From sequence record OZ346228.1: a DNA stretch of 64,000 nt, one strand, 5' to 3'. Origin of the DNA: a phage. Both the position numbers and the translations under genes were made by a program. The notes beneath the pieces were generated by a model, which saw only the letters and a list, made by a program, of their open reading frames with translations, did not search any database and had not been told where the DNA came from. Below, piece by piece: positions 54,749 through 64,000 of this stretch; within the stretch, counting starts at the first letter, position 1; every line of letters begins with the position of its first letter.

Positions 54749-55184
54749 GGTAACCCTCTATCCACGAAAAGTCAGTCTTCCATTCTGGAACTTTACTAAG
54801 CTCACGCCACTCTGCAAAGCAGTCTCGGTAATACGCCTCTGCCATACTCTTGGTGATCTTATTCACCTTAGCCAACTGATTAACTGCCTGAGCATACTTT
54901 CCACGGATATTTGCTAACCCAGGATGCACCGATGTGTGACAATCCGGGCACAGTGCTATCAGTCCGACAAGCCGGATCACTCCCTCTTCGAAAGTGTAAA
55001 GTTCATGACACTCCACTGGGTGTTTGCTGCCTTTACCGCCGCACACCTCACAAGTGTAGTTGGCTTCTCTATAGCACTTCTTACGTATCTTATCCCACTC
55101 ACTCTTCTTCACAGCGTTTCGGAGGTTATTATACCAAGCTGTTTCTGGGATCAGTTGCACAATAAGCCTGCGTTCAGACTTCAT
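54738..55184 (-). CDS. zinc-binding protein (possible HNH-like)
   Basis: CEVCGG..HPVECHE..CPDCH; start chosen at internal ATG. Confidence 0.4.
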   Translation of the reverse strand: MKSERRLIVQLIPETAWYNNLRNAVKKSEWDKIRKKCYREANYTCEVCGGKGSKHPVECHELYTFEEGVIRLVGLIALCPDCHTSVHPGLANIRGKYAQAVNQLAKVNKITKSMAEAYYRDCFAEWRELSKVPEWKTDFSWIEGYLDG

Positions 55185-55212
55185 TAAACGTCCGTCTTCC
55201 ACGTGTTCTCCC

Positions 55213-55419
55213 TCATTCAAAGAAATGGGTGCGAGGGCAGGAACCTGCCTCACCTTGTTTCACAAGCTCGTAGAGCTCACCTTGACTTGTCTCATAAAGG
55301 CAAATACGTTTACCATTGTCCCGATATACATCGACAAGATACGCTGTTTCACCTGCAAACACGACACCACAGGCCAGACATGCTACCATGAACAAAATTG
55401 CCAATAGAAAATCTTTCAT
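55213..55419 (-). CDS. small signal-peptide/TM protein next to endolysin
   Basis: N-terminal FLLAILFMVACLACGVVFAG then hydrophilic tail. Confidence 0.45.
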   Translation of the reverse strand: MKDFLLAILFMVACLACGVVFAGETAYLVDVYRDNGKRICLYETSQGELYELVKQGEAGSCPRTHFFE

Positions 55420-55482
55420 GGTTAAGCCCTCCTAAACATTTTATGAGGTAACAATACCACGTCCGTGTGGTTATGTCAATGA

Positions 55483-55953
55483 TCAATCAAGGACAACACC
55501 GCCTGCCTTTTTAAACACCTCGATCAACTTCTCGATCTTCTGTTCATGCTGACCATATCCAGCACCAGGTAACGAAGCCCAGCGGGAACGGCATTTATGG
55601 ATAGCCTCGTGGATACGCCCTTCGTCAATGTCGGCGAGAGCCTTGCACTCACGGATCAGTTGCAACGCAATCTTGTCCTGACTGGCGGGGCCAAAATCTG
55701 GCAATCCTAACTGTTCCATGTAGTGTTTAGCAAACTTCTCCAAAACCTGGTAACGACCAGCAGCGGAGGAGGTAAGTTTAGCATTTAGCTTAACGTACAC
55801 ACCTGGATGCTTGCTGTAATCGCTAAACAGCTTGCCACCAACTATGACATCGTATCCCCGATCCTTAGTGGGTTGCCTACCATTATCTGTGCCTTCCGAA
55901 TATGCGATCATGTCCAAGAAAGCTTTTCGTTGAACATTTTTATCAAGTTTCAT
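55483..55953 (-). CDS. endolysin, lambda R-like lytic transglycosylase
   Basis: QRKAFLDMIAYSEGTDNGRQ, YDVIVGG, WASLPGAGYGQ near-colinear with lambda R (from memory). Confidence 0.9.
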   Translation of the reverse strand: MKLDKNVQRKAFLDMIAYSEGTDNGRQPTKDRGYDVIVGGKLFSDYSKHPGVYVKLNAKLTSSAAGRYQVLEKFAKHYMEQLGLPDFGPASQDKIALQLIRECKALADIDEGRIHEAIHKCRSRWASLPGAGYGQHEQKIEKLIEVFKKAGGVVLD

Positions 55954-56076
55954 TTTTCATACTCTCCAGTTTACTCATAACTAACACGATCAACAACACT
56001 ACACAGTGTGGTTATGTAGGTGCCGATTGAAAACCATCATTCAATTGGCTACCGTTACCTACTGAACCTTCCTACA

Positions 56077-57360
56077 TCATTCAAGCACCTCCCAAGTGTC
56101 TGGGTTAACATTTCGGACGCAGATACCGACAGGGAATTGGTAATTGTTGTCTTCTGTCCTTGCTTGGTATTTGAAGGTGACAAACTTGCCGATCATTTCC
56201 TGCATCCTGTCATAGCTACGCTCCTCGTGCGTGCCTTTCATCTTCATTTTAACAACAACACCTTCCTTGTCAACACAGATAAGAACACCTTCATCATTCT
56301 TATCTTTCTCAACGTCAATAACTTTCACCTCTGCGTCGTTGAACTTTTTCCATTTCAATGCTTCAGATGTTCGCTGACCATACTCATATTTACCGCAGAA
56401 ATTACGCATGATAGTACCTTCATATCCTTCGGACATGAATATACCAACAGATTCTTCGCAATGATCAACTGTGTACGCAAGCTCTGCGTCAACAACCTTG
56501 ATATGATCAAGCATCAGAGTGGTAACGGTATCCTCTGCATCCATAAGATCCTTGCAGCGTCCAGACTCTGTTTCTGGATCCCACCACACCTTGTCGCTAG
56601 GAATATCAAAAATGTGATACTCCAGATCGTAGCTACAGTATCCACCGTAACGCAAATCATCACGAACAGGCTCAACATCGACAGGAATATCTACCTTGTT
56701 GAAGTTTTTGTATGTTGATAAGCCTGCCTTAATTGCTGCATGACGGCGTTTTTTATCTGCCTCATAGTCTTTATCGATCTCGGCCTGAATCTCTTCCTGT
56801 GTGCGCCACCGTTTAGCAAGAGACACTATTTTCTGCAAAGGAAGACCATGAATGTATAGTTCCCCATCAAGTTGTTTAATCCCAGTGGTAGAATGGAAAG
56901 AACGAAGTTGCTCTAAAAGCTTTCCTTGAATAGGGTAGGACTTATTACCACGGGAAATAAATTTAGGCTCACCATTTTGGAAAACAACAAGCAGACGAAG
57001 GCCATCTAACTTACGCAAGATCCAGCAAGGTAATTTAAGTGCCTTGCCACGCTTCAGGTAGTCATGCACCAGCATAGGTAAAAGATCAACACCCTGCTCG
57101 CAATCTTCCATGTTTTCAACATACCCCAGACGGACTTGTTTTTCCCACTTGCTGATAGCCTCAAGCTCGGCCTGTTGCTCAGCTGTAGTCTCGTTGGCAC
57201 GACCTACGTTTTTAGGTGTACATACCGTCTCTTTGTACTGCAATTTACCGTCAAGCTTGCCAAACTCTACGATAACCTTTTCGCCATCAGTGAATACTTT
57301 CCACTGTTGGTAGCTGCCATCTTTGTTCAGTGCGTACAGTGTTGTTTTGATTTGATGCAT
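56077..57360 (-). CDS. ATP-dependent DNA ligase
   Basis: Adenylation motif I RKLDGLR (KxDGxR); 427 aa. Confidence 0.8.
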   Translation of the reverse strand: MHQIKTTLYALNKDGSYQQWKVFTDGEKVIVEFGKLDGKLQYKETVCTPKNVGRANETTAEQQAELEAISKWEKQVRLGYVENMEDCEQGVDLLPMLVHDYLKRGKALKLPCWILRKLDGLRLLVVFQNGEPKFISRGNKSYPIQGKLLEQLRSFHSTTGIKQLDGELYIHGLPLQKIVSLAKRWRTQEEIQAEIDKDYEADKKRRHAAIKAGLSTYKNFNKVDIPVDVEPVRDDLRYGGYCSYDLEYHIFDIPSDKVWWDPETESGRCKDLMDAEDTVTTLMLDHIKVVDAELAYTVDHCEESVGIFMSEGYEGTIMRNFCGKYEYGQRTSEALKWKKFNDAEVKVIDVEKDKNDEGVLICVDKEGVVVKMKMKGTHEERSYDRMQEMIGKFVTFKYQARTEDNNYQFPVGICVRNVNPDTWEVLE

Positions 57361-57629
57361 TACTCGGCCTCTTCCTTAAAAATTTTAAACATCTCTTCTT
57401 TACTCATTACCAACCAGTCTCCCATAAAGTCAACTAACCAATCTCCCTGGTACAAAACCAAGTTGCCAAACGGCTCAACAAGCTCACACATGCGACGAAT
57501 ATCTCTGGTCCGAACAGGTGACGATGTAAACACACCTGTATCAATCCACCGTTGCAGATCAGATACTGATGAAGAGCTTCCATCAAACTGGTGTGCTTCT
57601 ACAGGTTTAGCAAGATTAAATAACGGCAT
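57360..57629 (-). CDS. hypothetical protein
   Basis: 1-nt overlap with ligase start. Confidence 0.5.
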   Translation of the reverse strand: MPLFNLAKPVEAHQFDGSSSSVSDLQRWIDTGVFTSSPVRTRDIRRMCELVEPFGNLVLYQGDWLVDFMGDWLVMSKEEMFKIFKEEAE

Positions 57630-57924
57630 TGCAGTCCTCCTTCTGTAGTAGGTCTTTTATAGGATAAACAAGTAAGTGTGGATCGGAATAACGTATAGTC
57701 CTATTCTGCCACACTATGAACTTTATTACAACCAAATTTACAATATCTTTATCACCATGTAGCCCAACACACACATTTGTCCATATTTTGTGGTTGAAGA
57801 TCTTGCTATCGATGTAGATTTTAGTGTCAAACTTATCTTCCATTCTACCTATAAGTTTGATCAGCTCCTTCATCTGGTCGCCAAACACAGCATCTTTTTC
57901 AAGATCTCTGGAATGCTTGTACAT
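57616..57924 (-). CDS. hypothetical protein
   Basis: Co-oriented ORF. Confidence 0.45.
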   Translation of the reverse strand: MYKHSRDLEKDAVFGDQMKELIKLIGRMEDKFDTKIYIDSKIFNHKIWTNVCVGLHGDKDIVNLVVIKFIVWQNRTIRYSDPHLLVYPIKDLLQKEDCNAVI

Positions 57925-57986
57925 AACTAACTACCTCACTGCATACTTTCCATAATAAGTAAAGCCGGGTAATCCCGGCTATGTTG

Positions 57987-58700
57987 TTAAATATACTCTG
58001 TTACATCCTTGAAGCTCGAAGGCTTCATAATCTTACCTTTACTGTCAAGGAATATAATAACTTTATTACCGTTGTAGAACTCCTCTTTAGCAACGAAACC
58101 TTCGTAGCGACCACCAAAACGACGCTCAAGATCTTCAATCTCTAACTCTATGAGCAATTCAGTAGACATATCTGCACTGGCACCGTGAGAATATCGTAGA
58201 TGGTTGATCCGTGCAAACTTGCTGTCATTAGATTTGAGAACCTTCCGCATCATCCCACACACATCGCCGCGAAGCTGGAACAGCAAAGCTGTTGACAACT
58301 CCGCTAAGCGGTAAGCTGACGCTCTTTGCTTGGATGTGTTTTTCGCAGCGATCAGTGTATCATAGAACTCACCGATCTTGAACTTAAGACCTCGTGGATT
58401 ATCAAACAGGTTTGACCACTTTTCGTGATTATCATTAACAAGATAAGCGGCATAACTTGTGACAACGTGAAGATCGCAGGCCTCTTTTAGCAGGTGATCT
58501 CCACCATCACCTTTCTCCAGCTCTTCCAAAACCTCATTGAACTCTTCCTCAATGAAGCTAAGCTGTAATTCGAATGGTGTGTATGATTTTTTCACTTTAG
58601 CTGCCACACGGTTCCAGTTTTCCACCCAGTTGGCAGACCAAAGGTAGTTTTCAGGCTGAGACAGTTTTTCCAGGTTGTCGATCAGTTTAGTATTCAGCAT
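57987..58700 (-). CDS. hypothetical protein (possible MazG-like segment)
   Basis: IEEEFNEVLEELEKG..EACDLHVV weakly MazG-like. Confidence 0.5.
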   Translation of the reverse strand: MLNTKLIDNLEKLSQPENYLWSANWVENWNRVAAKVKKSYTPFELQLSFIEEEFNEVLEELEKGDGGDHLLKEACDLHVVTSYAAYLVNDNHEKWSNLFDNPRGLKFKIGEFYDTLIAAKNTSKQRASAYRLAELSTALLFQLRGDVCGMMRKVLKSNDSKFARINHLRYSHGASADMSTELLIELEIEDLERRFGGRYEGFVAKEEFYNGNKVIIFLDSKGKIMKPSSFKDVTEYI

Positions 58701-58713
58701 TAAAGGTCTCCTT

Positions 58714-59475
58714 TTAAAGTTCCATAAAGTTTTCTACAGTTTCAATAAATGCTTTATCAGAGAAAGCGTCAACAGCACCGTTAAACCATACAGGGATCCC
58801 GCGATCCTCATATTGATAAAGGTCGCTACGTGAAATGCCACTCCCATCTGCACTCTGCGAGTCATACTTGTTTACAATCAGCAGTTTTGTGCCTTTACAA
58901 GTAGCAGGAAACAATTCCCAGTTAAAATTAATAACTGTGTTAGAACAACCTACTAGGATCACCATATCATTGCTTGTGAGAGATGTCAACAGGTCATACA
59001 TGTCTGTATACTTAGGAGCAACCTCACCGAAGAACACTACATTGGGCTTAACCCAGGTATACTTGCCTGTATCTACCTCCGTGTATCCGATATTTTTAAT
59101 TACATCATTACCTTCAGCATCTTCGTAGGTGATTTCAGGCAAATACCCGTGGACATGTAAAATATCTTCATGTTTTACACCAGCACGCTCCAGCAAATCA
59201 TCTACATTGGTGGTAAGGTTGATCACACGACCAGACCAGCGGGAATACCACTCAGCGATCCGAAGATGTGCAAGGTTAGGATCAACACTGCCCAGAGCTA
59301 CACGACGTGCATTGTAAAAGTCATGCACCTTATAGTAGTTCTTGGCAAAGGTGTGGATGTTGCACACCTCATCGATGCTGAAATTCTCCCACATTGCAGT
59401 GCTACCAGATCGGAAAGTGGGAATACCAGATTCAGCGCTCAAACCAGCACCGGAGATAATAATCAGTCGTCGCAT
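58714..59475 (-). CDS. Sir2-family NAD-dependent protein (no zinc ribbon)
   Basis: ISGAGLSAESGIPTFRS, LTTNVDDLLERAG..HVHG, VVFFGE; no CxxC..CxxC pairs in small-domain region. Confidence 0.75.
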   Translation of the reverse strand: MRRLIIISGAGLSAESGIPTFRSGSTAMWENFSIDEVCNIHTFAKNYYKVHDFYNARRVALGSVDPNLAHLRIAEWYSRWSGRVINLTTNVDDLLERAGVKHEDILHVHGYLPEITYEDAEGNDVIKNIGYTEVDTGKYTWVKPNVVFFGEVAPKYTDMYDLLTSLTSNDMVILVGCSNTVINFNWELFPATCKGTKLLIVNKYDSQSADGSGISRSDLYQYEDRGIPVWFNGAVDAFSDKAFIETVENFMEL

Positions 59476-59483
59476 AAGTGTCC

Positions 59484-59834
59484 TCAGTAGATGTTTTGTT
59501 TAATCTCTATTCCAAACTTCTTGAATGAGTCAGCAGCAAGCATAAATTTACGAGCTGCCGATGGATTAGAAGTATGCACGAAAATAATCACGTTGTCAAT
59601 AAGTGGTGGCTTTCCGAATACAAGTTTCTCCTCTAGCGCAGAGAAGCAGTCGTACCCTTCAAGCACTTCACCTAGATCATTGTCAAAATACCACTCAGAT
59701 ACGCGTCTGTAGAGCTTTCTCTTATCATTAAGAAAATCCATAAACTCAGAAGAATTCTTTAGCCACAGAGCGTCTGGGAGTCCATAATCTGACGGATCTC
59801 TAAAATCATCAAGCCACACAATCCACTTCTTCAT
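59484..59834 (-). CDS. hypothetical protein
   Basis: 4-nt overlap with RNA ligase gene. Confidence 0.5.
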   Translation of the reverse strand: MKKWIVWLDDFRDPSDYGLPDALWLKNSSEFMDFLNDKRKLYRRVSEWYFDNDLGEVLEGYDCFSALEEKLVFGKPPLIDNVIIFVHTSNPSAARKFMLAADSFKKFGIEIKQNIY

Positions 59835-60766
59835 TGCATATAGTCCTCGTTGTGGAAATAGTAGTCCAGTATCTCACGACGCTCCTGCTCTAATAAGCAA
59901 TTCCACACATCTTCTGTATAGTTGCTACGAATAAATTTTACCATACCGTAAAACTCTTCGTCAACACGTTTAAAGATATCATCATCCCAAATCTTCCAAG
60001 CTTTACCCCTCATTACTGCCTTCCGTGCCAGATAGTATGGAGACTTGATCTTCAGCTGCAGATCATAAGGGTAGTAAGGCTTACGAATCATATACCCTTC
60101 ACCTCTTGTTTCTGCAGCTAATTCTTTTGCATAGCTGAACGGAATTTCACGCACAGTGTTAGGACGTTTTGCACCAAGGTATTTGGCAATCCCATCTAAA
60201 GCTGCTTCTGGTAGCATTATTCCAGAATCATTATATCTGCAACCTATCAAATATGCGCCATGGTCTTCTTGAACAATATGCGGATCTGAAGGGTGACAAA
60301 TTTCAAACATGAATGTCATGTTTTCATTGCCCATAACCTTCTTGATAAGATCTAAATTACCACATTGCTCTTGGATGGTTTCCTTTGCAAGGTTACAATA
60401 TGGAGAATCAAGAGACCCGGTTGTTGAGAACAATAGGTCACCTTTATGAGATGATACCACACCAAGGAATCCGTTCTTTTTCTCTACCGCAGTCACAAGC
60501 TTATTGTCAGGCAGGTTGGTGGAGTTTTCTCCCAAGTTAAACACTTTTGTGAAGGGCCATGCCACAACATTTCCTTCATTACCTACAACAATGCCTCGGC
60601 ACTCCAGTAAACGAGGGGACAAATGCCATAAATTGTTGTAAAATACTTTTCTAGCATATTTATAGATCTTTAACCCGAGATCTGGGTAATACCTACTGGT
60701 TACAAGACCTTTGTCAACTAGGTCGTCTGCATTAAAATACTTCATTATATGTTCCTCATTTGTCAT
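59831..60766 (-). CDS. RNA ligase, T4 Rnl1-like
   Basis: LECRGIVV, KVFNLGEN, motif I EKKNGFLGV, GDLLFSTTGSL parallel T4 RnlA LECRGIMF, KFFNLNEN, TKEDGSL, GDEILFKSKGSI (from memory); start may be ATG at 60745. Confidence 0.75.
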   Translation of the reverse strand: MTNEEHIMKYFNADDLVDKGLVTSRYYPDLGLKIYKYARKVFYNNLWHLSPRLLECRGIVVGNEGNVVAWPFTKVFNLGENSTNLPDNKLVTAVEKKNGFLGVVSSHKGDLLFSTTGSLDSPYCNLAKETIQEQCGNLDLIKKVMGNENMTFMFEICHPSDPHIVQEDHGAYLIGCRYNDSGIMLPEAALDGIAKYLGAKRPNTVREIPFSYAKELAAETRGEGYMIRKPYYPYDLQLKIKSPYYLARKAVMRGKAWKIWDDDIFKRVDEEFYGMVKFIRSNYTEDVWNCLLEQERREILDYYFHNEDYMQ

Positions 60767-60809
60767 TTTGTCAGTCTATCCTGCCACACAAATAACCTAG
60801 TGTCAACAC

Positions 60810-60838
60810 TTGAAATTAACAAAACAGTTAGGTATACT
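60810..60838 (+). promoter_or_regulatory. sigma70-like promoter in divergent region
   Basis: TTGAAA, 17-nt spacer, TATACT. Confidence 0.45.
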
Positions 60839-60866
60839 ACCGTTGAAATTAAAACGGAGGGTCGCT

Positions 60867-61277
60867 ATGTCTAAAATGCTATATATCGTGCGTGGTCTAC
60901 CAGGGTCTGGCAAATCAACACTGGCAAATGAGCTATCTTTAGAGGGTCTGTATCCACATTTTGAGAACGACATGTTCTGGTATGACGATGACGGCAATTA
61001 CAACTGGGATGCAAGTAAAGTAACACTCGCAGCAAAATGGTGCAAAGATAACGTAGAAGATATGATGCGTATGGGATACGACCGTATCGTGGTAAGTAAT
61101 ACGTTTACAAAAGAAAAACATGTGCAGGAATATGTTGACATGGCAATCACTCACGGGTATAGTTATACCGTGATCGTGGTTGAAAACCGCCACGGTAATA
61201 AAAGCATTCATGATGTTCCAGACAAGGTTGTGGATCGTATGGAACGCCAGCTTAAAAACTGCATTAAACTTAAATGA
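60867..61277 (+). CDS. P-loop polynucleotide kinase-like protein
   Basis: RBS ACGGAGG; Walker A VRGLPGSGKSTLA; divergent from RNA ligase. Confidence 0.6.
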   Translation: MSKMLYIVRGLPGSGKSTLANELSLEGLYPHFENDMFWYDDDGNYNWDASKVTLAAKWCKDNVEDMMRMGYDRIVVSNTFTKEKHVQEYVDMAITHGYSYTVIVVENRHGNKSIHDVPDKVVDRMERQLKNCIKLK

Positions 61278-61284
61278 GGAATGT

Positions 61285-61839
61285 ATGAAATACTTTGTAA
61301 CAAGCGACACACACTTTCTCCACCAGCGGGTCATGGAGTTTGATTCATGTCAAAAACACAGATCTCAGTATGATCACAATCTTGACAGTATGAATGCAGG
61401 AATCATCGCCGAGTGGAACTCTGTTGTGTCACCTGCAGACACTGTGTTCCACTTGGGAGATATTGCGTGCACTAATGATAAGAATATCAACAACTTACTT
61501 CCAGATATTCTAAATATGTTGAACGGACATATTATTCTTGTTCGTGGCAACCATGACACAAGGACGACTGTCAGAATTATGAAAGAGTTCGGTCATGAGG
61601 TTGTAGATTATTACGAGCTTCGCCACAACAAGAATTTGATCTGTATGAGCCATTACCAGTTTGCAAAGTGGAACAGAAAGCCTCACGGATCAGTCCAACT
61701 GTTCGGTCATGCTCACGGAACCACACAACAGTTGTTTGGCAGGCAGCTTGATGTCGGTTGGGATGTGTGGGGGAGACTCTTACCATTAGAAGAGGCATAC
61801 CGTATTGCAATGAGTTTTGATATTGACAGCAGGGAGTAA
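61285..61839 (+). CDS. calcineurin-like metallophosphoesterase
   Basis: RBS TGAGGA; motifs SDTHFLH, HLGDIA, VRGNHD. Confidence 0.7.
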   Translation: MKYFVTSDTHFLHQRVMEFDSCQKHRSQYDHNLDSMNAGIIAEWNSVVSPADTVFHLGDIACTNDKNINNLLPDILNMLNGHIILVRGNHDTRTTVRIMKEFGHEVVDYYELRHNKNLICMSHYQFAKWNRKPHGSVQLFGHAHGTTQQLFGRQLDVGWDVWGRLLPLEEAYRIAMSFDIDSRE

Positions 61840-61886
61840 TCCCTGCTATTTTAAAGAAAATTGCCACACAAGGAGAATCAGGAGAT

Positions 61887-62237
61887 ATGAAAGATGGGGA
61901 TAAGCTGCTATATCTTAAAGTCCCCCTTGAAATACTATCTATGTCAAAAGTTTTGAATGACACAACTGGGGAGGTTGTTGTTCTTGACTTGTATGACAAG
62001 ATCGTATACTGCTACCTGCACAACTGGTATAAGCTTGGAGGAAATTCACGCTTCACACCAAGCACAAGGAAAATTGCAGCAGATGTTGGGATAAAGAAAA
62101 CAAAAGCAGCAGCGTGCGTTAAAACTTTAGAATGTGCAGGAGTGGTTGAAACATCCACACAAGGGAGAGGTAAAAGATGCACATTTTCCAAAGTTTTGCC
62201 ACCAGAAGAAGTTATTCGGATGTCAACAACTGGTTAG
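61887..62237 (+). CDS. putative DNA-binding (HTH-like) protein
   Basis: RBS AAGGAG; STRKIAADVGIKKTKAAACVKTLECAGVV resembles an HTH; followed by palindrome array. Confidence 0.5.
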   Translation: MKDGDKLLYLKVPLEILSMSKVLNDTTGEVVVLDLYDKIVYCYLHNWYKLGGNSRFTPSTRKIAADVGIKKTKAAACVKTLECAGVVETSTQGRGKRCTFSKVLPPEEVIRMSTTG

Positions 62238-62311
62238 ACCAGTAAAAACTTAAATATCTGTACTATAAGGATTCGTATGTTTTATGTTCGCCATGGAACG
62301 GATACTATTAA

Positions 62312-62394
62312 CTGTCCGTGATACGGACACTACTGTCCGTCACGCGGACACATCTGCCCGTAATACGGACACTAACTGTCCGTGATACGGACAC
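62312..62394. repeat. Four tandem 19-bp palindromic sites, 21-22 bp period
   Basis: CTGTCCGTGATACGGACAC, CTGTCCGTCACGCGGACAC, CTGCCCGTAATACGGACAC, CTGTCCGTGATACGGACAC; followed by ~130 bp AT-rich DNA. Confidence 0.6.
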
Positions 62395-62528
62395 ATAAAG
62401 AATATAACTAAAATAACTAAATAATAAAAAATAAAAGATCTAGTACTTATGGTACTAAGTACATATACTTAACTTATGTAGAATATACTAGATCCTAAGT
62501 ACCATGTTTTAAATTTATTACTTACTAT

Positions 62529-62790
62529 GGGCAGTGTCGGCCCTTCATTGGCACTCGCCTACGAGGGGGCGAGATGCCGGGCCTCCTTGGCGCACACAAT
62601 AACAGAAGTTCATACATGCAGGTCTGTTAACATGTGTGGGAGCGAAGCGATAGCGCAGGCCAAAGGCCGAGCACTGATGTGGACCACCGACGAAAGCTTG
62701 CCAGCGCCGTAAGGAGTCGGTTGAGAGTCTCCCGCGCGAGCTTGGATGAAGTTTATGTGTGGAAACTGACAAGAAGGCCCCTAAATCGCT
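62529..62790. other. GC-rich structured non-coding element (candidate ncRNA)
   Basis: ~260 nt of sharply higher GC flanked by AT-rich DNA; hairpins GGCACTCGCC..GGCGAGATGCC and GGCC-AAA-GGCC; track ORFs here on both strands look spurious. Confidence 0.3.
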
Positions 62791-62898
62791 CCACAGCTAT
62801 ATAAACTATACCAGGTAATGCAATCGCACCAGTTTGATAGAAAAGCTCGTTACAAAGCGATACAGTGAGTTTTTCTATAACTTGAAGAGGAGGCAGCT

Positions 62899-63477
62899 AT
62901 GGGTTCACGCAAAGATGACCGTGAAAAGATTGCAAAACGTTATCAGAATGAAGAACAGATGGAGAAAACTTTCAAGTGGAAGCCAGGTTTCCAGCGTAAT
63001 CATTCTAACGCTCGTGATCGTAAGCATCCGGATAAGTGGCTAACACCGCCAAATGATGGCATGCAGGTTGGGGATGAGAAGGAGATGTCGCCTGGAAAAG
63101 ATGGCAACTACATTCGCACTAAGGACGCTGGTCCAAAGGATGACAGCTATCTTGTAGATAAGGTTCTTGATGGTATCAATGTAGATGTTGACACTGCACG
63201 AAACCTTTTTCTTGGGTGGTATCGCACAGGTTTTTTCGACATCAAGGCTATTCGTCGTGTTTGTGATATTAAAAAGTCTGCATATGATGACGACTCGTTA
63301 CATCGCACCCTGAGACAATATTCAGAAAGATATGGTCATCCGGTTATCACTCTTGACGATGTTAACGAAGTGATGTATCATGCAGAGGTTGTTGCAGGAA
63401 GATTCGGTGATGCATATCTTGATATCCTTTCTGCAAAGGATGAGGTAATGTTAAATAAGATTTACTATGAACGCTGA
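62899..63477 (+). CDS. hypothetical protein
   Basis: RBS GAGGAGG; 192 aa. Confidence 0.55.
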   Translation: MGSRKDDREKIAKRYQNEEQMEKTFKWKPGFQRNHSNARDRKHPDKWLTPPNDGMQVGDEKEMSPGKDGNYIRTKDAGPKDDSYLVDKVLDGINVDVDTARNLFLGWYRTGFFDIKAIRRVCDIKKSAYDDDSLHRTLRQYSERYGHPVITLDDVNEVMYHAEVVAGRFGDAYLDILSAKDEVMLNKIYYER

Positions 63478-63487
63478 GGAGCGCTTA

Positions 63488-63676
63488 ATGAACAACCCGG
63501 TAGCAAAGAACTGTAATAAGTTCAACAAGTCTGCAATTCACACTGACAGGAAAAAGAGCTGGTCTCCTGACATTGACGAGGAGCTTGAGAGTTACTTTGA
63601 AGACCTGGTCACTAATGCAGATGAGGTTGCGATTAAAGAATACGCAGACAGGAAGGATAAGGCCGGAATCTGTTGA
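63488..63676 (+). CDS. hypothetical protein
   Basis: RBS TGAGGAG before internal ATG. Confidence 0.45.
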   Translation: MNNPVAKNCNKFNKSAIHTDRKKSWSPDIDEELESYFEDLVTNADEVAIKEYADRKDKAGIC

Positions 63677-63752
63677 CAAAAATAGTGTTACCTGATAAGA
63701 TCTGCAATATGATGTGATGCAATTTTAACTTACGAGGTCTACAGGTAATGCT

Positions 63753-63995
63753 ATGTTTAAGGTTAAGCTCGTTTTTCGTTCCATGAATGAGGATTATTTA
63801 GAAGATGAAGGTGAATTTCGTGCACTGGATGATGCAATAGATTTTGCCAACGACTTAGCTTGTATGAATACGGGTTATGGGCTATGCTGTTGGGATGGTG
63901 GTGTTCAGATCGGTGATAGCAAGATCTTCTACTTCTACCCTGAACCTGATAACAAACAAATTAAGTATGTTTTATTTATTTGTGCTTTACAATGA
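63753..63995 (+). CDS. hypothetical protein
   Basis: 80-aa ORF, stop at 63993-63995. Confidence 0.5.
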   Translation: MFKVKLVFRSMNEDYLEDEGEFRALDDAIDFANDLACMNTGYGLCCWDGGVQIGDSKIFYFYPEPDNKQIKYVLFICALQ

Positions 63996-64000
63996 GGTTG

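Follow-up and report, generated by a model that had tools for sequence, protein, structure and literature searches.

In phage T4, the kinase-phosphatase Pnkp (pseT) and the RNA ligase Rnl1 (gene 63) reverse the damage done by PrrC (PMC3400036). Bacterial Pnkp-Hen1 systems, such as CthPnkp and Capnocytophaga Pnkp1/Rnl/Hen1, combine kinase, metallophosphoesterase and ligase, and the CthPnkp metallophosphoesterase heals 2',3'-cyclic ends (PMC2190708, PMC3675462). In fungi and plants, Trl1 heals and seals with a kinase and an Rnl1-superfamily ligase, and Tpt1 provides the parallel for a last step dependent on nicotinamide adenine dinucleotide (NAD+). Among phages, cRec was defined and its linkage to RNA ligases noted by Iyer et al. 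(2021; PMC7824862), and a sirtuin-cREC-tRNA ligase neighborhood of phage V5 and Proteus phage Mydo was described by Iyer, Burroughs, Anantharaman and Aravind (2022; Viruses 14:1977, section 3.7.3; PMC9503650). The locus considered here lies in a 64,000-nucleotide (nt) stretch of phage DNA (OZ346228.1; hereafter the window), for which an earlier note had proposed a divergent RNA repair module of Rnl1-like ligase, polynucleotide kinase and calcineurin-like phosphoesterase. Sequence comparisons and structural models make it likely that these three genes (hereafter the cassette) encode separate proteins that mend RNA, probably tRNA, cut by host defense nucleases.

Compared with T4, the cassette has the same three predicted chemistries, a ligase of the same family and a kinase of the same P-loop polynucleotide kinase (PNK) clade, and its early-type genes are likewise clustered. 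The packaging differs: in T4 the kinase carries the 3' healer, a DxDxT/HAD acylphosphatase, as a fused domain, whereas here a binuclear metallophosphoesterase accompanies a free-standing kinase of 136 amino acids, and the ligase is ~60 amino acids shorter than that of T4. The combination of kinase, metallophosphoesterase and ligase is that of bacterial Pnkp, whose kinase fold is also close (0.72-0.78 by template-modeling (TM) score). There, however, the activities reside in one polypeptide with a Hen1 methyltransferase, whereas the phage has three proteins, and no Hen1 occurs in the six-gene string to which the cassette belongs or among its immediate neighbors. The phage phosphoesterase is moreover of a small aq_1665/YfcE-like type, and the ligase profile matches T4 Rnl1 alone among solved structures. 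With Trl1 and Tpt1 the locus shares a kinase and an Rnl1-superfamily ligase, heal-and-seal logic and possibly an NAD+-dependent last step, but Trl1 is a single polypeptide and uses a 2H cyclic phosphodiesterase; neither a 2H domain nor KptA/Tpt1 turned up among the proteins scanned with Pfam. The cassette is a textbook-style variant, with the logic of T4 and a phosphatase choice like that of bacterial Pnkp, more than a surprise.

Linkage of Ligase, Kinase and Phosphoesterase Across Phages

Linkage was counted at 80 metagenomic viral loci from IMG/VR carrying a ligase homolog (36-89% identity; 41 clusters at 70% ligase identity), with partners scored within 6 kb, and base rates were taken from 50,697 phage records. 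All three families are rare in those records, the ligase occurring in 811 (1.6%), the kinase in 647 (1.3%) and the phosphoesterase in 1402 (2.8%), yet the kinase is found near the ligase at 70/80 loci (34/41 clusters) and the phosphoesterase at 62/80 (35/41 clusters); the juxtaposition is therefore not due to chance. Several loci without partners are contigs that end beside the ligase. The spread of the kinase by organism name across the phage records nearly mirrors that of the ligase. Functional linkage is strong for the ligase-kinase pair and good for the phosphoesterase. The three genes cluster, in differing orders, in four phage groups, namely Phapecoctavirus, Vipunavirus (Demerecviridae) and two separate Pseudomonas groups (Bitten and IQPL, with no taxonomy in their records), and likewise in Acinetobacter phage Acibel004. 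Partners are nearly always co-directional with the ligase (69/70 for the kinase, 61/62 for the phosphoesterase), and both lie on the opposite strand at two loci only, that of the window and that of L007, a close relative. The divergent arrangement proposed by the earlier note is present here, but is a Vequintavirus rearrangement and not a feature of the system.

Gene fusions point the same way. At 11 loci (L040, L042, L046-L048, L051, L053, L056, L057, L059 and L061) kinase and ligase form a single open reading frame of 421-432 amino acids, in which Pfam confirmed AAA_33 and RNA_lig_T4_1 for L048. Staphylococcus phage PT94 (Sextaecvirus; PP212903, L087:1561-3825) encodes a 754-amino-acid protein with AAA_33, Metallophos and RNA_lig_T4_1 domains (phrog_8238-like). 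It shares with the cassette the kinase, the metallophosphoesterase, the Rnl1-type ligase and the kinase-phosphoesterase order, and corresponds among phages to bacterial Pnkp, except that its ligase domain is of Rnl1 type. Unlike the cassette it is one chain, and tblastn did not recover its phosphoesterase domain as a homolog of the window's, so that this domain probably belongs to another Metallophos subgroup. The protein carries the annotation "putative serine/threonine protein phosphatase".

In Streptomyces phage Stanimal the ligase is paired with a T4-type kinase-HAD Pnkp (AAA_33 and HAD_PNKP), and in a T4-like Morganella phage Rnl1 and Pnkp lie ~2 kb apart. With the kinase-HAD Pnkp of Streptomyces and T4-like phages, the phosphatase has undergone non-orthologous displacement. 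The ligase-kinase pair of Pseudomonas and Vibrio phages and of an IMG/VR locus (L004-L006 and L040) repeatedly adjoins NAD+-salvage genes for ribose-phosphate pyrophosphokinase (Prs) and nicotinamide phosphoribosyltransferase (NAMPT), and at L040 also a second RNA ligase, of PF09414 type with an OB domain.

The Rnl1-Type Ligase

The ligase matches Pfam RNA_lig_T4_1 (PF09511) over the full profile (positions 1-227) with 55.4 bits (cut-off 28.3; E 1e-14), but its 38.4 bits against the NCBIfam T4 RnlA equivalog model TIGR02308 do not reach the cut-off of 242. It is therefore a member of the family and not a T4 RnlA equivalog; by sequence it is placed in a distinct, smaller subfamily within the Rnl1 family. 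Single-sequence phmmer searches of the PDB with ligase, kinase and cREC returned nothing useful; family profiles reached T4 Rnl1 and polynucleotide kinases. The ligase profile, built from 32 homologs, has T4 Rnl1 (2C5U; E 1.5e-13, T4 residues 51-249) as its sole match among 177,635 distinct PDB sequences, and no Trl1 entry in the PDB was matched at the sequence level.

The catalytic residues of T4 Rnl1 have invariant counterparts in the homologs. Motif I, K96-K-N-G99, aligns with T4 K99-E-D-G102 and contains the predicted adenylylated lysine, K96. In motifs III, IV and V the conserved residues are E155 (FEI), E223-G224 and K239-x-K241, aligned with T4 E159, E227-G228 and K240/K242, and upstream of motif I they are R57 (LECRG) and K74/F76 (PFTKVFN), aligned with T4 R54 and K75/F77. 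Wang, Ho and Shuman reportedly found in 2003 that the aligned T4 Rnl1 residues (e.g., Arg54, Lys75 and Phe77) are essential.

An AlphaFold model of the ligase, with a predicted local distance difference test (pLDDT) score of 89.5, has Rnl3, T4 Rnl1 and Trl1-LIG as its best folds. The fold search retrieved Rnl3-, Rnl1- and Trl1-type RNA ligases at E ~1e-11, but DNA ligases only at ~1e-2. TM scores were 0.63-0.65 to fungal Trl1-LIG and 0.62 to T4 Rnl1. The earlier note's designation of an Rnl1-like RNA ligase thus agrees with both the profile searches and a model nearer to RNA than to DNA ligases. A bona fide ATP-dependent DNA ligase is encoded separately at 56077-57360 (Pfam), 2.5 kb from the cassette, so the Rnl1-type enzyme is not needed for DNA.

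The Free-Standing Kinase

The kinase scores 43.3 bits against Pfam AAA_33 (cut-off 27) and belongs to a very large family of stand-alone ~130-amino-acid kinases, which fills at least 7,992 clusters in the database. The PHROGs label for this family (phrog_2071) is just "ATPase" and has been copied into many GenBank records, so that the polynucleotide kinase name is absent from much public annotation. In polynucleotide kinases a catalytic aspartate, the general base, follows strand 2 (Asp35 in T4, Asp38 in CthPnk). The phage protein has a P-loop, G-L-P-G-S-G-K-S-T, at residues 10-18 (G10, G15, K16 and T18 invariant), and its invariant D35 (E-x-D-M-F) is aligned by profile with T4 Asp35. An E-N-R-H motif is also invariant in the family, as are R9 and R108, the latter within that motif; the hidden Markov model alignment to T4 stops at profile position 102, before R108.

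The earlier note had called this enzyme a polynucleotide kinase, and both profile and fold favor that assignment over a nucleotide kinase. The best full-length PDB matches of the kinase profile are T4 Pnk (1LY1; 7e-6), Capnocytophaga Pnkp1 (4XRP), the tRNA kinase PSTK and CthPnk (4GP7), whereas adenylate-kinase-type entries match in the P-loop only. The kinase model (pLDDT 83.6) has query-normalized TM scores of 0.78 to T4 Pnkp (2IA5) and CthPnk (4GP6) and 0.73 to PSTK, compared with 0.47-0.59 to adenylate, UMP-CMP, shikimate and gluconate kinases. The modeled fold is thus nearer to polynucleotide kinases than to nucleotide kinases. By BLAST the protein also matches the kinase domain of the T4-type Pnkp of phage Stanimal (9e-9). 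It has AAA_33-type matches only, and the HAD_PNKP phosphatase domain fused to the T4 kinase is not present; the phosphatase is separate, as the earlier note had said, and bacterial Pnkp offers the precedent for one of metallophosphoesterase type.

The Metallophosphoesterase

The phosphoesterase exceeds the Pfam thresholds for Metallophos_2 (29.0 bits; cut-off 27) and Metallophos (27.9 bits; cut-off 21.5). The six metal-ligand motifs of a binuclear enzyme are all present (D8-x-H10, G58-D59, G88-N89-H90, H123 and G141-H142-x-H144), and across 19 sequences they vary little or not at all. In the PDB, its profile lies closest to the uncharacterized Aquifex protein aq_1665 (1XM7; E 1.3e-23), with GpdQ, MJ0936, YfcE and a few others matching more weakly; the match to the ligase-associated PdeM family (E 2.6e-4) is under the cut-off. 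In sequence terms the enzyme is an analog, and not a member, of the metallophosphatase clade with which bacterial Pnkp heals 2',3'-cyclic phosphates.

Proposed Function and How It Is Weighed

From homology and gene context, a three-step pathway can be proposed. The kinase would transfer a phosphate from a nucleoside triphosphate (NTP) to the 5'-OH end, and the metallophosphoesterase would open and remove the 2',3'-cyclic or 3'-phosphate to leave a 3'-OH. The ligase would then adenylylate itself on Lys96, pass the adenylate (AMP) to the 5'-phosphate and seal the break. In Vequintavirus these activities would be carried by separate small polypeptides from two divergent transcription units. The analysis shows which families the enzymes belong to, that their catalytic residues are conserved and that their genes are linked and in places fused; the substrates, the order of steps, the tRNA target and the role against host defenses are inferred.

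Several observations weigh against this pathway. In the ligase, an invariant Thr116 occupies the position of T4 Lys119 (VSTTGT in the family, FKSKGS in T4), and ~65 residues follow motif V, where T4 Rnl1 has a C-terminal tRNA-specificity domain of ~120 amino acids (~255-374). These ~65 residues are modeled as four short helices, and the all-helical T4 domain is without counterpart. In T4 Pnkp, Arg38 and Arg126 hold the polynucleotide and NTP phosphates; the phage kinase has no Arg at the Arg38 position, and a W or F stands three residues after D35. No experimental study of this ligase/kinase/phosphoesterase clade was found in the literature. One HEPN tRNase, Ec2ApeA, is moreover reported to restrict Vequintaviruses, and the cassette therefore gives no blanket protection.

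The remaining objections concern the phosphoesterase. Entries for lambda-phosphatase and Pnkp phosphatases were not matched by its profile in the PDB (E <= 0.1), and its nearest characterized relatives, MJ0936, YfcE and GpdQ, are named phosphodiesterases or phosphohydrolases there. The family is wider than the cassette, as its count in the phage records exceeds that of the ligase, and in Kayvirus, Kochikohdavirus and one group of Vibrio phages its homologs have neither a ligase nor a kinase gene within 4 kb. Conversely, no phosphoesterase homolog was found within 6 kb of the 11 kinase-ligase fusion loci. Since the family occurs without the ligase, in Herelleviridae and other phages, and is missing beside the fusions, the assignment of the phosphoesterase as 3' healer is the weakest step in the chain. 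An alternative 3'-phosphoesterase of 2H, HD or HAD type was not found by Pfam among selected open reading frames beside the fusions (L040 and L048); Pfam identified there a DNA ligase, a second RNA ligase (PF09414 with OB domain), Prs and unknowns. The homologs in Kayvirus, Kochikohdavirus and Vibrio phage D430 (L091-L093) are 30-41% identical to the window protein and are surrounded by hypothetical genes.

The cREC, Sirtuin and MazG-Like Neighbors

The RNA repair module of the earlier note is linked by neighborhood and fusions, but its extent was drawn too small, with cREC, the sirtuin and the MazG-like gene left out. Together with the cassette these genes form one contiguous six-gene block, 57987-61839 (Table 1). 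The sirtuin and MazG-like genes lie in the same minus-strand string as the ligase, and the cREC ATG overlaps the ligase TGA (ATGA). In related Klebsiella-type phages, cREC lies between ligase and kinase. Its conserved D9-D10, D51/D53, T/S88-S89 and K96 make up a receiver-like acidic pocket. The MazG-like protein has no Pfam match and takes its identity from phrog_671.

All components of the V5/Mydo-type neighborhood (sirtuin, T4-like tRNA ligase, cREC, kinase, MazG-like protein and calcineurin-like phosphoesterase) are present here, and the system is the same. The published hierarchy differs, however, in being centered on the sirtuin, with the phosphoesterase "occasional" and the kinase a "nucleotide kinase" (PMC9503650), whereas ligase-centered counts give the reverse order. 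Within the 80 loci, SIR2 is found near the ligase at 11/80, MazG at 12/80 and cREC or SIR2 at 10-11/80 (3-4/41 clusters). Kinase and phosphoesterase are thus near-constant partners of the ligase, and sirtuin, cREC and MazG are minority, lineage-specific add-ons (10-12/80).

What, then, might these add-ons contribute? As accessories to the cassette they may let ends with a 2'-phosphate be handled by another, NAD+-dependent route, in keeping with the proposal that the sirtuin acts on 2'-phosphates in the manner of KptA/Tpt1 in an NAD+-dependent branch of repair (PMC9503650). A stronger version makes that branch the main route. In this yeast-like scheme cREC would convert the cyclic phosphate into a 2'-phosphate, the kinase would phosphorylate the 5' terminus and the ligase would close the break. 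The sirtuin, acting as an analog of Tpt1/KptA, would then use ADP-ribosyl transfer to clear the 2'-phosphate from the junction, with metallophosphoesterase and MazG cleaning up ADP-ribose cyclic phosphate or playing a side role (Iyer et al., 2022). Besides the published proposal itself, the overlap of cREC with the ligase, the shared gene string, the position of cREC between ligase and kinase in related phages and its retained acidic pocket all favor this route, as does a ligase model about as close to fungal Trl1-LIG as to T4 Rnl1. Against it, cREC or SIR2 is present at so few loci, where kinase and phosphoesterase are near-universal, that the ligases of this clade can evidently do without either; T4 Rnl1, and no entry for Trl1, is what the ligase profile finds by sequence; and the activity of cREC is uncharacterized according to the authors of the proposal (PMC9503650). 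As the main route it is unlikely. Equally doubtful is the related suggestion that the V5-type ligase works like Trl1 on 2'-phosphate ends made by cREC, with the zinc-less sirtuin removing the junction 2'-phosphate with NAD+. On that suggestion the sirtuin, a part of the scheme taken from Iyer et al. (2022), would be a sirtuin-fold functional analog of Tpt1/KptA, which have the ADP-ribosyltransferase (ART) fold, and the metallophosphoesterase/kinase/ligase triad would be the ancestral, NAD+-independent route.

Other Explanations

Kinase and phosphoesterase could instead serve nucleotide or signal metabolism, in NAD+ salvage or in the breakdown of cyclic-nucleotide immune signals, and be mere neighbors of the ligase in an early-gene region. 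The name "nucleotide kinase" used by Iyer et al. (PMC9503650) fits this view, as do the Prs and NAMPT genes adjoining the cluster in Pseudomonas and Vibrio phages, a weak match of the kinase profile to nicotinamide riboside kinase (E 0.007) and a phosphoesterase family that is found in many phages without the ligase and whose nearest named relatives are phosphodiesterases. It sits poorly with the existence of kinase-ligase and kinase-metallophosphoesterase-ligase fusion proteins and with a kinase distribution by host name that nearly mirrors that of the ligase. The best kinase matches are, in addition, polynucleotide and tRNA kinases, with TM scores clearly above those of nucleotide kinases, and this reading as a whole is improbable.

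Least probable of all is that kinase and phosphoesterase heal DNA ends (nicks with 5'-OH and 3'-phosphate) for the DNA ligase, with the Rnl1-like protein an unrelated gene or a tail-fiber attachment factor in the style of gp63: the nearby DNA ligase (within 6 kb at 26/80 ligase loci), the GenBank name "RNA ligase 1 and tail attachment protein", the sub-threshold PdeM likeness of the phosphoesterase and the action of T4 Pnk on both DNA and RNA speak for it, but it is the RNA ligase, and not the DNA ligase, that is closely linked to these genes and often overlaps or is fused with them, the ligase catalytic residues are all invariant where a structural chaperone would not require them, the "tail attachment" label is annotation inherited from T4, and the ligase is also found in the Demerecviridae phage VPG01. 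Demerecviridae are T5-like siphoviruses, which are not known to have T4-type long tail fibers. Tail-fiber attachment, DNA repair and nucleotide metabolism were rejected as primary explanations on the grounds of fusions, linkage, invariant catalytic residues and PNK-type matches.

Locus Layout and Relatives

All three open reading frames listed in the earlier note are present, each above its Pfam curated threshold (Table 1). For the ligase, Met8 (60745) is the probable start, since homologs begin there and the record of phage isim annotates Met8. The likely kinase start is the ATG at 60867 rather than the TTG at 60810 of the longest open reading frame, and that of the phosphoesterase the ATG at 61285, with GAGGA upstream, rather than the TTG at 61180.

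Table 1. Coordinates of the repair cassette and adjoining features in the window.
Feature	Position	Strand	Basis
MazG-like nucleotide pyrophosphohydrolase candidate, 237 amino acids	57987..58700	-	phrog_671 "nucleotide pyrophosphohydrolase", 5.7e-22
Sirtuin (SIR2) family protein	58714..59475	-	Pfam SIR2, 6.9e-28; phrog_2162, 1.5e-108
cREC (cyclic-phosphate-processing receiver-like) protein	59484..59834	-	Pfam cREC_REC PF20274, 9.1e-14
Rnl1-type ATP-dependent RNA ligase	59831..60766	-	Pfam RNA_lig_T4_1; longest open reading frame 311 amino acids
Divergent intergenic region with promoter-like elements	60767..60866	.	Consensus matches; putative function
P-loop 5'-OH polynucleotide kinase candidate, 136 amino acids	60867..61277	+	Pfam AAA_33
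Small binuclear metallophosphoesterase, 184 amino acids, candidate 2',3'-cyclic/3'-phosphate healer	61285..61839	+	Pfam Metallophos, Metallophos_2

Ligase and kinase diverge across an intergenic region of ~100 nt. Ahead of the kinase ATG, the plus strand carries a sigma-70-like site, TTGAAA (60810)-17 nt-TATACT (60838), with 10/12 consensus matches, and on the minus strand a perfect TTGACA at 60806-60801 was recognized by eye, with a weak -10. In the promoter scan as a whole, 13 sites were found where 8.5 +/- 3.2 were expected, a difference that is not significant, and the intergenic site is taken as a hint.

The cassette region is 100% identical to that of Escherichia phage isim (Vequintavirus) and 97-99.9% identical to those of ~100 other Vequintavirus (rV5-like) genomes, among them phage V5 (DQ832317; 97.3% over 57987-61839). 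It is already annotated in public records and has been published as a predicted RNA repair system. The BASEL record of phage CarlMeissner names its genes RNA ligase, polynucleotide kinase and putative phosphoesterase; other GenBank names for cassette genes, besides the tail attachment label, include "ATPase" and "NEDD4-binding protein 2". Proteins 97-98% identical to those of E. coli Vequintavirus are also found in records labeled Campylobacter phage (MG065676 A116, MG065690 A135 and ~20 more), which suggests mislabeled hosts or contaminant assemblies.

No tRNA gene is present in the whole window and no Rfam family in the searched stretch 55000-64000. Phage CarlMeissner has a cluster of six tRNA genes (Arg, Tyr, Lys, Thr, Ile and Pro) near its repair genes, ~3 kb past the right end of the window (L001:11354-12166). 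A 21-22-nt unit containing the palindrome GTCCGT-N4-ACGGAC is repeated four times in tandem at 62309-62394, just downstream of an HTH_36/DUF6945 gene (61887-62237) called "replication initiation protein" in one GenBank record. The guanine-cytosine (GC) skew changes sign at ~60-62 kb. The repeats look like a candidate iteron-type origin.

Implications

The remaining interest of the cassette is in its biochemistry, above all that of the cREC/sirtuin branch, and the gap is experimental and not conceptual. If true, the proposed function would make the cassette a source of compact enzymes that heal and seal RNA ends and might serve as reagents. Phage therapy and the BASEL collection draw heavily on the phage groups that bear the cassette, and a role in RNA repair would bear on predicting escape from PrrC, RloC, HEPN tRNases, Cas13 and PARIS-like nucleases. 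If the cassette works as proposed, rV5-like phages would carry a T4-style countermeasure to tRNA-cleaving defenses, built from different, smaller parts and shared by Phapecoctavirus, Vipunavirus, Saclayvirus and Pseudomonas phage groups.

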